Shown: positions 9,137 through 63,586 of the stretch, one piece after another
Layout of the letters: each line of letters starts with the position of its first letter
Position numbering within the stretch: the first letter of the stretch is position 1
Assembly (NCBI GenBank): GCA_964582365.1
Contig: CAZOQV010000001.1
Span: forward strand, 12,712-76,711
Length of the DNA stretch: 64,000 bases
Reading direction: 5' to 3'
Origin: an uncultured Gammaproteobacteria bacterium
GTDB taxonomy: Bacteria > Patescibacteriota > Microgenomatia > UBA12405
Program-made: the position numbers and the translations under genes
Notes under the pieces: model-generated
What the model saw: the letters and a program-made list of their open reading frames with translations, nothing else
Database searches by the model: none
What the model was told of the DNA's origin: nothing

Positions 9137-9541
9137 ATGAATTTGACTTCACCAGCTAATTGGGAAGAATTAGTTAATTTAAAATCAATTTTACCAACTT
9201 GTACCCCAGAATTTGCTCGCTTAGCTGAAGATCTTAGATATTATCGTCTTTATCAAGAACTAGTCCCCAAAAAAATCAGATTAGAGATATTGGAAAGACG
9301 ATTATCTGATGACATTTGTTTTGCTAAAAATATGTTTCCTTATACTCGTCTTTTAGTTAATTTACCAAAAGTAAAACAATATTGTCTTTGGTCAAAAAAT
9401 GGTAAATTGTCCGACGAAGAAGTTGAAGCAAAAATTAATAAAACATTTCCCTCGAAATCATATTTTTGGTTTGAAAATTCAGCAGCCACTAAATCTGTTC
9501 CTGAAATCTGGCATTGCCATGTCTTTGTTAAAGAAGATTAA
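9137..9541 (+). CDS. Hypothetical protein with a conserved C-terminal motif WHCHVFVKE
   Basis: ORF only; no recognised domain. Confidence 0.35.
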   Translation: MNLTSPANWEELVNLKSILPTCTPEFARLAEDLRYYRLYQELVPKKIRLEILERRLSDDICFAKNMFPYTRLLVNLPKVKQYCLWSKNGKLSDEEVEAKINKTFPSKSYFWFENSAATKSVPEIWHCHVFVKED

Positions 9542-9586
9542 TTTGATATTATTAAAAGGGAAAAATTAAACACCCCTTTTTTAATT

Positions 9587-10654
9587 ATGAACAAATATCC
9601 GCTCTGTTTGTCGCTTGATGATGTTCTTTTATTACCTCAATTTTCTAAAATAAATTCTCGGTCAGAAGTCGATTTATCTTGGAAAATGGGTGATATTAAG
9701 TTAAAATTACCCTTAATTTCGGCCAATATGGATTGTGTTACTGGTGTCGACATGGCTGTTGCCTTAGGTAAAATTGGGGGACTTGGTGTAATTCCTCGTT
9801 TTGACAAACCAGAAATTCAATGTCAAAAAATTACAAAAATTAAGGCCGCCGGTGTTCCTGTTGCCGGTTCAATTGGTATTAAAGATGACGAATGGCAACG
9901 ACTTGAACTCCTAATCAAAACGGGTGTTGATCATATTAATATTGATGTTGCTCATGGCCATTTAAAACGAGTTCAAGATTTTTCTTATCAAATTAAAAAG
10001 AAATATCCCTTTATTAATTTATCAGCCGGAGTTGTTGGAACAGCCGATGGTGCCCGTGATCTTTTCAAAGCCGGTGTTGATATTGTTAAAGTTGGTGTTG
10101 GCCCTGGCAGTATTTGCACTACCAGAATTATGACTGGTTGTGGTGCTCCTCAGTTTACTGCCATCACCGATTGTGCCAAAGTTTCAAGACATTATCATAA
10201 AATAATTTGGGCTGATGGTGGTGTTAAAAATTCTGGTGATGCTGTCAAATGTTTGGCCGCCGGTGCCTCTGCTGTTGTTTTGGGTAATGTTTTTGCTGGT
10301 ACTGACGAAGCCCCTCCAGAAATTATTGATATTAATGGTCAAAAATATAAATCTTATAACGGTTCAACCAGTTCCATCGAAAAACAAAGACAATTAGGAA
10401 AAAATAACTCTGATAAAAACGGTCAGTATCTTAATCATATTGAAGGAGTTGAAGGATTTGTTCCTTACAAAGGTCCTCTGCTAGCACTAGTTGAAAAATT
10501 TATTGCGGGTATTAGATCTGGTTATTCTTATTGTGGAGCCACTAATACTCAAGAACTTTGGAAAAAAGCTAAATTTATTCAAGTCACCGCCGCCGGCCTT
10601 CGTGAAAATAATTTTCACGACATCATTTCTTCGTTGCCATCGTCACATAAATAA
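9587..10654 (+). CDS. IMP dehydrogenase/GMP reductase family enzyme (no CBS insert)
   Basis: The catalytic loop [24 protein letters not shown], the N-terminus [10 protein letters not shown]...ISANMDCVT, and the absence of CBS domains. Confidence 0.8.
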
Positions 10655-51260: not shown

Positions 51261-53156
51261 ATGTCAAACAAAATAATCGGAATCGATTTAGGTACTACCA
51301 ACTCTTGCGTCGCAGTAATGGAAGGTGGTTCCCCAAAAGTTATTTTTAGTTCAGAAGGTCGCAACACTATTCCTTCTATTGTCGAACCAGTCAAAAAGCT
51401 GGTTGGCGATTTAGCCAAACGACAAATGGTTTTGAACTCCAAAAACACTATCTATAGTGTTAAGCGTCTTATGGGTCGACGTATTGATGATCCAGAGGTT
51501 AAAAAAACTCAAACTGTTGCTCCATATAAAATTGTCGCCGGTAAAGACAAAATGGCTGCTATCGAGATTGACGGCAAGACTTACACTCCTCAGGAAATTT
51601 CATCTATGATTTTGCAAAAAGCCAAAGCTGATGCTGAAAAATATCTTGGTGAAAAAGTCACCGATGCTGTTATCACCGTCCCTGCTTACTTTGATGATTC
51701 TCAAAGACAAGCTACAAAACAAGCTGGTGAAATCGCCGGTCTTAATGTTCAACGAATTGTTAATGAACCAACTGCCGCTGCTTTAGCCTATGGTATGGAT
51801 AAAAAACAAAACGGAGTTATTGCTGTCTATGATTTAGGAGGGGGAACTTTTGATATTTCCATTCTCGAAATTGGTGATGGTATTTTTGAAGTTAAATCTA
51901 CCAACGGAGATACTTTCCTTGGTGGCGATGATTTTGATCAAAAAATTATTACTTGGATTATTGATGATTTTCAAAAACAAAACGGAGTTGATCTAAGTAA
52001 AGATCCTCAAGCCTTACAACGTGTTCGCGAAGCTGCCGAAAAAGCCAAAATTGAACTCAGTTCAGCTGCTGAAACCGAAATTAATTTACCATTCATTACT
52101 CAAAAGGATGGTCAACCTCTTCATTTAACTAAAAAGTTAACTCGCTCTGAATTGGAAAAATTAATTGATGATTTAGTTCAAAAAACCATAGGTCCAGTCG
52201 AAAAAGCTCTAAAAGATGCCAAAGTAACCAAGTCTGATATTAAAGAAATCATTATGGTCGGAGGCATGACTCGTATGCCTAAAGTTCAAGAAGTTGTTAA
52301 AAACTTCTTCGGTAAAGATTTAAATAATACCGTAAACCCGGACGAAGTTGTTGCCATCGGTGCTGCCGTTCAAGGTGCTGTTTTAACTGGTGAAGTTAAA
52401 GATGTTGTCCTTTTGGACGTCACACCGTTAACTTTCGGAATTGAAACTGCTGGTGGCGTCAGAACTCCTTTAATTGATCGAAATACTACTGTTCCTACCA
52501 AGAAATCTCAAGTTTTCACTACCTATGCCGACAATCAACCTCAAGTGGAAATTAATGTTCTTCAAGGTGAACGTCCTATGGCGGCTGATAACAAATCTTT
52601 AGGCCGATTCATTCTCGATGGGATTGCTCCAGCTCCACGTGGTATGCCTCAAATTGAAGTCACTTTTGATATTGATAGCAATGGTATTCTTTCTGTCTCT
52701 GCTAAAGATAAGGGCACTGGCAAAGAACAAAGAATCACCATTCAAAATGCTACCAACTTAAAAGAAGAAGAGATTGAGCAAATGAAAAAAGAAGCCGAAG
52801 CTCATGCTCGTGAAGACGAAGAAAAGAAAGGTTTAGCCGAATCTAAGAACAAACTTGATGCAACTATTTTTTCTGGTGAAAAAACCTTGAAAGATTTTGC
52901 TGATAAAGTTAAACCGGAAGATAAAACCAAAATAGAAGAAAAAATTAAAGAATCTAAAGATATTTTATCTAAATCAGATGCTAAAAAAGATGAATTAGAT
53001 AAAGCTTCAGACGAGCTTAGTCAAATTCTTCAAACCATCGGTGCTGCTATTTATCAACAGCAACAACCTGGACAATCAGGGCCAGAAACTCCAACCGAAG
53101 AGCCCAAAAAAGCTGATGATAAAAAAGAAGCTGAAGAAGGCGAAGTCGTCCAATAA
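51261..53156 (+). CDS. dnaK: Chaperone DnaK (Hsp70)
   Basis: [22 protein letters not shown] and the full Hsp70 architecture. Confidence 0.95.
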
Positions 53157-53164
53157 AAATTAAT

Positions 53165-53193
53165 AATTAATATTGTAGAGACGTCCCGCTGGG
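53165..53193. repeat. REP-like palindrome copy 1: GTAGAGACG-N11-CGTCTCTAC (extendable to 13 bp with one G.U pair)
   Basis: Perfect 9-bp arms in the dnaK-dnaJ spacer, GC-rich against an AT-rich background. Confidence 0.6.
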
Positions 53194-53232
53194 GCGTCTC
53201 TACGCGATTGTTGATAATGATAAAATAGACCC

Positions 53233-54090
53233 ATGAAAAAAGATTTTTACGAAACACTTGGCGTTTCCAAAAGCGCTTCTAAAGATGAAATTAAAAGTGC
53301 CTACAGAAAGGCGGCTTTAAAGTTTCATCCAGATCGTAATAAAGCCCCAGATGCCGAAGAAAAATTCAAAGAAATCAACGAAGCTTATGAAGTTTTAAGT
53401 AATTCTGAAAAAAAATCCGCTTACGATCAATTTGGGCATGCTGCTTTTGACCCATCTTCAGGTGGTTTTGGTGGTCATACTTATACTCAACAAAACGGTC
53501 CTAATTTTACCTACACCCAAAGCAGTAATCCTTTTGGCGGAGCTGACTTTGATTTTGGCGGATTTAGTAATCCATTTGATATTTTTGAACAATTTTTTGG
53601 AGGTGGCAGTTTTAGTGGTCAGCAAGGCCGAAGTAAACGAATCGAAACTTATAAAATTTCGATTTCTTTTCTAGAAGCCGCTAATGGTTGTCAAAAAGAA
53701 GTTTCTATCGATGGTAAGAAAAAAACTATCAAAATTCCTGCCGGTGTTGACGATGGTCAAAAAATTCGTTTTTCTGAATTTATTTTATATATCGACGTTT
53801 TACCTGATAAAGTTTTTAGACGCGAAGGTAACGATGTTTATGTTAATGCCAATATTAGCCTAACCCAAGCCATTTTTGGTGATACCATTGAAGTTCCTAC
53901 TTTGGATGAACCATTAAAAATTCGGGTTAAATCCGGTACTCAGCCAAATACTTTAGTCCGTCTTCGAGGCCAGGGGATTAAAGATGTAAATGGCTATGGA
54001 AAGGGCGATTTTTATATTCGTCTTTTTGTTGAAATTCCTACTAAACTATCTTCTCGTCAAAAAGACCTCTTAAAACAGCTCGATTTGTAA
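53233..54090 (+). CDS. dnaJ: DnaJ-family co-chaperone lacking the Cys-rich zinc-finger domain
   Basis: A J-domain ([13 protein letters not shown]), a G/F region, no CxxCxGxG repeats, length 285 aa. Confidence 0.8.
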
Positions 54091-62940: not shown

Positions 62941-62972
62941 TTGTAGAGACGCGATTAATCGCGTCTCTACAA
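62941..62972. repeat. REP-like palindrome copy 2: a perfect 32-nt palindrome TTGTAGAGACGCGATTAATCGCGTCTCTACAA
   Basis: Self-complementary over its whole length; lies 11 nt after the rnj stop and 42 nt before the transposase-like gene. Confidence 0.65.
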
Positions 62973-63013
62973 ATTTAAATTTATTTTTTTAACTTTTCTT
63001 GCCATAATTATTT

Positions 63014-63586
63014 ATGGTAATTGTAAATAATCCAACCAAATTTGCCGACAAATTTAAACTAAAATCATCTCGTCTAACCAGTTGGGATTATTCCACCCCT
63101 GGATATTATTTCATCACCATCTGTACTCTTAATCATAATAATTTCTTTGGAAAAATTATTAATAATAAAATAATTTATTCAAAACGTGGTGAAATTGCTA
63201 AATCTGAATTATTAAAAACATTCGAAATTAGAAAAAATATTAAATTACACGAATGGATTATTATACCTAATCATGTTCATATTTTAATGGAAATAAAATA
63301 TCAAAATTATCAACTAAATAGATGTAGAGACGTTCCGCAGAACGTCTCTACAGAATCGAAAAAGTTTTCAGTTATTTCTCCTAGATCAAATTCTATTTCA
63401 AATATTATTAAACAATTCAAATCCGCCGTTACAAGGCAAATCAATCCCCAAACCATATTTTTTGGATGGCAACCCCGTTTCCACGATGAAATCATTAAAG
63501 ATGAAAAAAAATTATTAATAGTCAAAGAATATATTAAAAATAATATTATAAATTGGAACAAGGATAAATATTTTATAAAATCATAA
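63014..63586 (+). CDS. IS200/IS605-family HuH transposase-like protein of the REP-associated (RAYT/TnpA_REP) type, with the catalytic Tyr position apparently substituted
   Basis: The HuH motif PNHVHILMEI, helix KQFKSAVTRQIN, and C-terminal WQPRFHDEIIKDE, which parallels RayT WQRNYYEHVIRNE. An in-frame palindrome lies in the CDS. Confidence 0.55.
   Translation: MVIVNNPTKFADKFKLKSSRLTSWDYSTPGYYFITICTLNHNNFFGKIINNKIIYSKRGEIAKSELLKTFEIRKNIKLHEWIIIPNHVHILMEIKYQNYQLNRCRDVPQNVSTESKKFSVISPRSNSISNIIKQFKSAVTRQINPQTIFFGWQPRFHDEIIKDEKKLLIVKEYIKNNIINWNKDKYFIKS
63323..63352. repeat. REP-like palindrome copy 3 (13-bp arms TGTAGAGACGTTC/GAACGTCTCTACA, 4-nt centre), embedded in frame in the transposase-like CDS
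   Basis: It encodes RCRDVPQNVST between the HuH motif and the downstream helix. Confidence 0.6.

Follow-up and report, generated by a model that had tools for sequence, protein, structure and literature searches.

The nuclease gene and its three palindromes

The stretch of DNA analysed here, a window of 64 kb, carries at 63014..63586 on its forward strand a gene for a protein of 190 amino acids that Pfam, a PDB profile search and Foldseek identify as a putative tnpAREP/RAYT; it would be a single-strand DNA nuclease of HuH-Y1 type, belonging to TnpAY1 subclass 2.4. Its neighbours are a 597-aa ORF of metallo-beta-lactamase type, which lies upstream, and a class II aminoacyl-tRNA synthetase gene (Pfam tRNA-synt_2b and HGTP_anticodon). 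Three GC-rich palindromes with the arms GTAGAGACG…CGTCTCTAC are present in the window; their cores are GTAGAGACGTCCCGCTGGGGCGTCTCTAC (53175-53203), GTAGAGACGCGATTAATCGCGTCTCTAC (62943-62970) and GTAGAGACGTTCCGCAGAACGTCTCTAC (63324-63351). All three had been recognised in an initial annotation of this DNA, where the first was placed about 10 nt too low, at 53165-53193.

The first copy, built as GTAGAGACG-TCCCGCTGGGG-CGTCTCTAC, sits around 10 kb from the RAYT gene in the 76-nt spacer between the ORFs 51261-53156 and 53233-54090, which from a reading of their sequence we take to be putative dnaK and dnaJ genes. The second is a perfect palindrome of 32 nt (62941..62972, core 62943-62970), as had been described; it begins 11 nt past the stop codon of the 597-aa ORF and ends 42 nt before the ATG of tnpAREP, of which it would be the upstream REP. 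The third (63323..63352, core 63324-63351) lies within the gene itself, in the loop that joins the HuH strand to the long helix after it; together with one flanking base on each side its core makes up exactly codons 104-113 of the ORF (CRDVPQNVST), and the earlier description of an exact segment of 30 nt and 10 codons, in frame between the HuH motif and the following helix, is thus correct. No strand is assigned to any of the three, and no REP was found downstream of the gene in the window.

All three window copies are of the double-foot type (5′ GT[AG]G … C[TC]AC 3′), as in subclass 2.4, and each can form a hairpin with 9-12 perfect pairs. Folded as single-stranded DNA they reach -12.5 kcal/mol (z -5.3) for the first copy, -16.3 kcal/mol (z -9.9) for the second and -14.0 kcal/mol (z -7.3) for the third, and their GC content is 50-66% against 32.7% for the window. 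The 10-mer TGTAGAGACG, with at most one mismatch, is matched 9 times in the window, where 1.08 +/- 0.98 matches, or around one such arm, would be expected by chance; 9 matches were reached in 0 of 100 shuffles. The first two copies have the 5′ flank ATTGTAGAGACG in common, again as first described, and the core, inner stem and loop differ among all three.

An Rfam search with the hairpins returned no matching family; they are therefore not a curated RNA motif. The palindromes could also be read as ordinary intrinsic terminators or host regulatory hairpins that have nothing to do with the ORF, given that the one at 62941-62972, past the end of the upstream ORF, is marked as resembling a terminator and that many REPs have been suggested to be RNA elements downstream of genes (PMC3733652). 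This is extremely improbable: the 9-nt foot and stem co-occur with the gene family in more than 60 loci of unrelated phyla, including inside coding sequence, and the T tails are weak or absent. Furthermore, a secondary role as a terminator would be compatible with the identity of these elements as REPs, and is no alternative to it. The terminator reading was rejected; it fits the second copy alone, and weakly.

In a 3.1-kb Logan contig (L001) from the same organism, with an identical gene, the assembly starts at the perfect 32-nt palindrome 62941-62972, which probably interrupts de Bruijn assembly, and in CPR genomes such REPs may be a systematic cause of fragmented assemblies.

A predicted complete HuH-Y1 enzyme

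An HVHIL HuH motif and a HuH-type fold had both been proposed for the 190-aa ORF, and both proposals are borne out. The ORF matches Pfam Y1_Tnp (PF01797) above the cutoff (27.9 bits, cutoff 23, E 2.8e-6). With the NCBIfam model NF047646 (REP_Tyr_transpos), which was built on the E. coli type, it scores 52.8 bits, below the equivalog cutoff of 80, and the ORF therefore does not count as an equivalog of the E. coli enzyme of subclass 2.2; with the NCBIfam model transpos_IS200 it scores 16.8 against a cutoff of 55. There are 193 homologs of the protein, and an alignment of 42 homologs was the basis of both the profile search and the AlphaFold model. Searched with this profile, the PDB gave a sole significant match, 4er8 (E. 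coli TnpAREP), in which W-Q-P-R-F and Y-I-x-x-N are aligned. The AF2 model (pLDDT 74.9, pTM 0.71) likewise had 4er8_A as its top Foldseek match in the PDB (E 5.6e-5, TM 0.58 on the target), followed by the TnpA proteins of IS608, ISDra2 and IS200.

Three motifs, all on the forward strand, carry this assignment. The HuH motif, H87-V88-H89 (63272..63280) in the context PNHVHIL, fits the subclass 2.4 signature NH[IFV]H. The segment WQPRFHDEIIK (W152-K162, 63467..63499) aligns with W94-R104 of E. coli TnpAREP, which is the segment that contacts the GTAG foot; in the E. coli protein W94, Q95, E100, H101 and R104 contact GTAG (PMC6006769), and both binding and cleavage require GTAG (PMC8266576). The third is the Y motif YIKNN (63530..63544), in which Y173 is the predicted catalytic tyrosine and N177 a predicted metal ligand, in the positions of E. 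coli Y115 and N119. Among the 42 aligned homologs H87, H89, W152, Q153, Y173, N176 and N177 are invariant.

It had been suggested that the catalytic tyrosine is replaced by F or H in WQPRFHDEII, and the absence of a tyrosine from this segment, together with the fact that the three REPs of the window are unlike one another, could be taken to mean that the ORF is a catalytically dead relic and the palindromes fossils. However, WQPRFHDEII is the segment contacting GTAG and not the tyrosine motif. In the profile alignment it pairs with WQPRFWEHAI of E. coli (W94-I103), which is how 4er8 reads, the E. coli sequence having been misquoted as WQRNYYEHVI, and it is EYIKNN that pairs with the E. coli DYIYIN, placing Y173 on Y115 and N177 on N119. 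The Y115F mutant of TnpAEc is catalytically dead (PMC8266576), and N119 has been assigned a metal-ligand role (PMC6006769). Since Y173 corresponds to Y115 and H87, H89 and N177 are invariant with it, the catalytic tyrosine is present. In addition, the ORF is intact, with 60-79% identity kept in dozens of relatives, and all three hairpins retain their perfect pairing. A dead relic can thus be dismissed with little hesitation; as judged from the aligned residues and the model, the enzyme looks catalytically complete, with the HuH-Y1 fold and the catalytic residues intact. The locus thereby corrects what had appeared to be a dead transposase.

One departure from the class is seen in the Y motif, Y173-I-K-N-N177-I, in which isoleucine takes the place of the proline of the class-2 pattern Y---NP; most homologs have proline here and some valine.

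A further alternative is that the gene and its flanking hairpins are an autonomous insertion sequence of IS200/IS605 type, moving as a unit, and not a domesticated REPtron. The subclass 1.1 TnpA proteins of IS608 and ISDra2 share the HuH-Y1 fold and recognise subterminal hairpins in single-stranded DNA. Three observations speak for such an element: in many relatives the gene has hairpins on both of its sides, its distribution among taxa is patchy, and the gene context differs between the window and three relatives (L082, L083 and L084). In those relatives the gene lies between a RarA-like AAA gene and GIY-YIG/Ogt-like genes, a difference in neighbourhood from the window that means that the gene moved, or the region was rearranged, within Shapirobacteria-like genomes. 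IS200/IS605 elements, however, have a class-1 Y---Q motif, are multi-copy, move as a unit, often with tnpB, and lack dispersed solo hairpins, whereas the motif here is class-2 Y---N(P), the 64-kb window has one copy of the gene and no paralog, no tnpB neighbours the gene there, it has no downstream hairpin, and hairpins occur alone, far from any RAYT. Members of subclass 2.4 average 1.5 copies per genome, with 40% identity between copies (PMC6006769), which also speaks against an autonomous element. On the Y motif and the copy number the insertion sequence reading, which we regard as very unlikely, was rejected.

The REP inside the gene

The third REP lies in a variable part of the protein. 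The alignment of the 42 homologs is gapped and variable in length exactly between the HuH motif and alphaC, and in the AF2 model pLDDT is low over the loop 95-127 (around 50 at residues 100-125). In this same loop the homologs carry 0-3 copies of either CRDV…VST or VET…SLQ, which are the same DNA read in two frames. Relatives of the ORF number more than 544 in species-representative genomes of many phyla (Shapirobacteria and other CPR, Bacteroidota, Cyanobacteria, Chloroflexota, Gamma- and Deltaproteobacteria, Planctomycetota and others).

Double-foot hairpins (GT[AG]G…C[TC]AC, at least 8 perfect pairs) were sought within and beside the gene at loci from many phyla. Such a hairpin is found inside the gene, 12-103 nt after NHxH, in 55 of 84 loci (65%), compared with 16/80 upstream and 15/84 downstream, about 20% for either flank, although occupancy of the flanks may be underestimated by these settings. 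The stems are as perfect within the gene as outside it. The in-gene REP is read as GTA-GAG-ACG (VET) in 23 cases and as xGT-AGA-GAC ([CGR]RD) in 28, and never in the third frame, which would read TAG. Three quarters (75%) of the REPs are 28 nt long; positions 1-9 (GTAGAGACG) are almost invariant across phyla, and positions 10-13 and the loop vary with pairing kept. External REPs number 62, and 29 of them are no more than 150 nt from an end of the gene (15 upstream, 14 downstream); REPs are also dispersed beyond this distance. The core of the internal REP is exactly that of an external REP of the same locus in 9 of 26 cases, a match equalled by 0 of 2000 permutations. The flanks of 103 REPs yielded no tetranucleotide as a target or cleavage motif, just a preference for a pyrimidine at -1 (78% C/T).

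Tandem arrays were observed beside RAYT homologs in two MAGs of Bacteroidota, at 12090-13013 of L036 and at 9402-9881 and 10672-11056 of L078; they have periods of 179, 178 and 137 nt and 2.7-5.2 units, with one double-foot REP in each unit.

It is clear from these counts that the REP in the gene, first thought to be special to this copy, is a family trait: the same hairpin occupies the same loop in most of the 84 homolog loci, and in-frame REPs inside the gene are known from, and a published hallmark of, subclass 2.4 (PMC6006769), so the arrangement is not new. Nor was the REP recently inserted here. In L083 (76% amino acid identity) this REP has the same position and reading frame and differs once, in the loop, and therefore the internal REP of the window was inherited. 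An identical REP copy also ends 11 nt upstream of the gene in L083. Another relative, L084, has two full internal copies and a decayed half-copy, along with four external copies within 12 kb, and in L082 (69% identity) both the REP core and the frame are different. The in-gene REP very probably came from a common ancestor of several Shapirobacteria-like relatives, and was kept either by constraint or by homogenisation.

The REP family also reaches well beyond the nuclease gene. The exact 28-mer GTAGAGACGTTCYGCAGAACGTCTCTAC is found on 53 metagenome contigs. These hold 70 REPs, 50 of which have no RAYT homolog at their locus; another 13 come within 200 nt of such a homolog, and 6 lie within one. 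Among CPR-like metagenome contigs the same REP occurs in frame in genes for PheT (L098, around 2937; L100, 1626; L117, 2372), the NAD-dependent DNA ligase LigA (L127, 834; L132, 2305), the dihydrouridine synthase Dus (L105, 535; L111, 1312) and LeuS (L097, 56), and twice in that for MiaA (L096, 597 and 812). The encoded peptides are [RG]RDVLQNVST or VETFCRTSL, and the Pfam domains resume on both sides of the insert. Because copies are dispersed and in frame, the REP family is, or was, mobile in this lineage, and that the REP survives in frame in loops is a general phenomenon, not one confined to the nuclease gene. These insertions in essential genes of Shapirobacteria-like genomes are a concrete source of lineage-specific protein insertions in CPR. 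REPs within genes, DNA ligase and tRNA synthetase genes included, have been reported before (Di Nocera et al. 2013, PMC3733652); those intragenic REPs and the Rickettsia palindromic elements (PMC3733652) are likewise palindromic repeats in frame in protein genes, as seen here in CPR-like contigs, but there host genes in general carry them, whereas here the gene so decorated is that of the REP's own nuclease.

The in-gene REP could, instead of a tolerated passenger, be a selected cis element, either an autoregulatory site for binding or cleavage on the enzyme's own gene or transcript, or a linked "master copy" by which the cognate substrate would accompany the gene in horizontal transfer. Selection would be consistent with the excess of internal over flanking REPs, with stems as perfect inside the gene as outside, and with the comparison of the window and L083, in which the REP is identical at 27/28 positions and third codon positions (synonymous sites) are 68% identical. 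The foot GTAGAGACG is, in addition, invariant across phyla (CPR, Cyanobacteria, Bacteroidota and Proteobacteria) whose proteins are 35-48% identical. Yet the internal REP is absent from about a third of the loci and present in others as 2-3 copies or as decayed half-copies, the distance of the REP from NHxH varies widely, the same REP is in frame in unrelated housekeeping genes, and internal cores track the local external REPs, as repeated insertion or homogenisation predicts. A high occupancy would also be possible if just precise, in-frame loss were viable. On balance a selected element seems unlikely, though less so than the other alternatives: the higher occupancy and conservation hint at selection and do not show it. 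Were it true, the in-gene REP would be the one that matters for the function of the system, and enzyme and substrate would be inherited and horizontally transferred as one unit. The in-gene REP is in any case the best-conserved REP of these REPtrons, and uses just the two frames free of stops.

A probable REPtron of subclass 2.4

Taken together, we consider it likely, at around 85%, that the locus is a REPtron of TnpAY1 subclass 2.4, with a gene for a catalytically intact HuH-Y1 enzyme as predicted from its sequence and cognate double-foot REPs of 28-29 nt; the pairing of a REP with a RAYT, as first suggested, is supported. The association of the enzyme gene and the hairpins is physical. The REP in the dnaK-dnaJ spacer is very likely a dispersed member of the same REP population. 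Subclass 2.4 was defined by Quentin, Siguier, Chandler & Fichant 2018 (BMC Genomics 19:475; PMC6006769) and is the same as group 4 of the RAYTs in Bertels et al. 2017 (PMC5581495). The placement rests on motifs, architecture and REP type. As described, the subclass combines the motifs NH[IFV]H, WQ and YIxNNP with proteins that are 194 aa long at the median, an insertion of variable length between beta3 and alphaC, and double-foot REPs; GTAGAGAC…GTCTCTAC REPs appear in Table S1 (PMC6006769). Here the motifs are NHVH, WQ and YIKNN in a protein of 190 aa, and the variable beta3-alphaC insertion, the double-foot REPs and the GTAGAGAC…GTCTCTAC consensus are shared. The subclass is also one of low copy number, and the window has one copy of the gene. 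The locus differs from the described subclass in the isoleucine that replaces the proline of YIxNNP and in having a REP on its upstream flank only. It also differs in its host, as PMC6006769 names Cyanobacteria, Bacteroidetes and "various phyla" and not CPR/Patescibacteria; group 4 is common in Cyanobacteria, Chlorobia and Caldilineae, with flanking 16-mers of modest abundance (Bertels et al. 2017, PMC5581495).

The host genome is small and AT-rich, and is probably that of a member of the CPR/Patescibacteria (Shapirobacteria-like). Among the papers listed by our literature search none treats RAYT/TnpAREP systems in CPR/Patescibacteria, although one preprint pairs both terms, and a string search of the literature with GTAGAGACG gave just unrelated primer sequences. 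With this locus a REPtron subclass that was already described gains a host with a small, AT-rich and probably CPR genome; by itself the locus adds little.

The best match in both sequence and fold is E. coli TnpAREP/RayT (YafM; subclass 2.2, 4er8), the enzyme of the REP/BIME system. The two share the HuH-Y1 fold, the aligned WQPRF, Y115/Y173 and N119/N177, REPs with a GTAG foot, and a single-copy gene flanked by REPs. However, the proteins are only around 16% identical, and that of E. coli has a C-terminal extension and lacks the insertion in the loop. In the E. coli REP a lone unpaired GTAG foot accompanies a bulged stem, and such REPs do not occur within the gene.

The whole mechanism is drawn from homology with the TnpA of IS608 and with E. 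coli TnpAREP: the enzyme would bind the REP hairpin on single-stranded DNA, for instance on the lagging-strand template, and read the GTAG foot through its WQPRF…D… segment. DNA beside the hairpin would then be cleaved and rejoined by means of Y173 and a metal bound by H87, H89 and N177, and now and then this would copy or move REPs, preferentially to sites near the gene. As the hairpin is fully symmetric, it offers the same substrate on both strands. REPs would thus build up close to the gene, where one coding position, the disordered loop after the HuH strand, tolerates them, and in that loop a REP would survive just in the two reading frames without the TAG stop. Within its 64 kb the window holds 3 copies, which all differ in inner stem and loop and of which none is downstream of the gene, and so it gives no sign of recent copying in this genome.

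Two minor observations concern the types of REP. The 9-mer GTAG-A-GACG of the window REPs (complement CGTC-T-CTAC) holds a GTAG tag and, nested inside it, a CGTC tag; in Di Nocera et al. (PMC3733652) these tags define two separate REP superfamilies, the CGTC superfamily having no known transposase. The presence of both in one 9-mer may be a coincidence. The upstream REP of the window, with the core GCGATTAATCGC, is identical over 28 nt to REPs at 1469 of L047, a contig labelled as uncultured Gammaproteobacteria, and at 2454 of L099, a CPR-like metagenome contig in which it sits 27 nt past a REP of the TTCTGCAGAA type. From this identity and the two types in L099 it follows that several REP subfamilies coexist, some of them shared across distant bins, by HGT or mis-binning.
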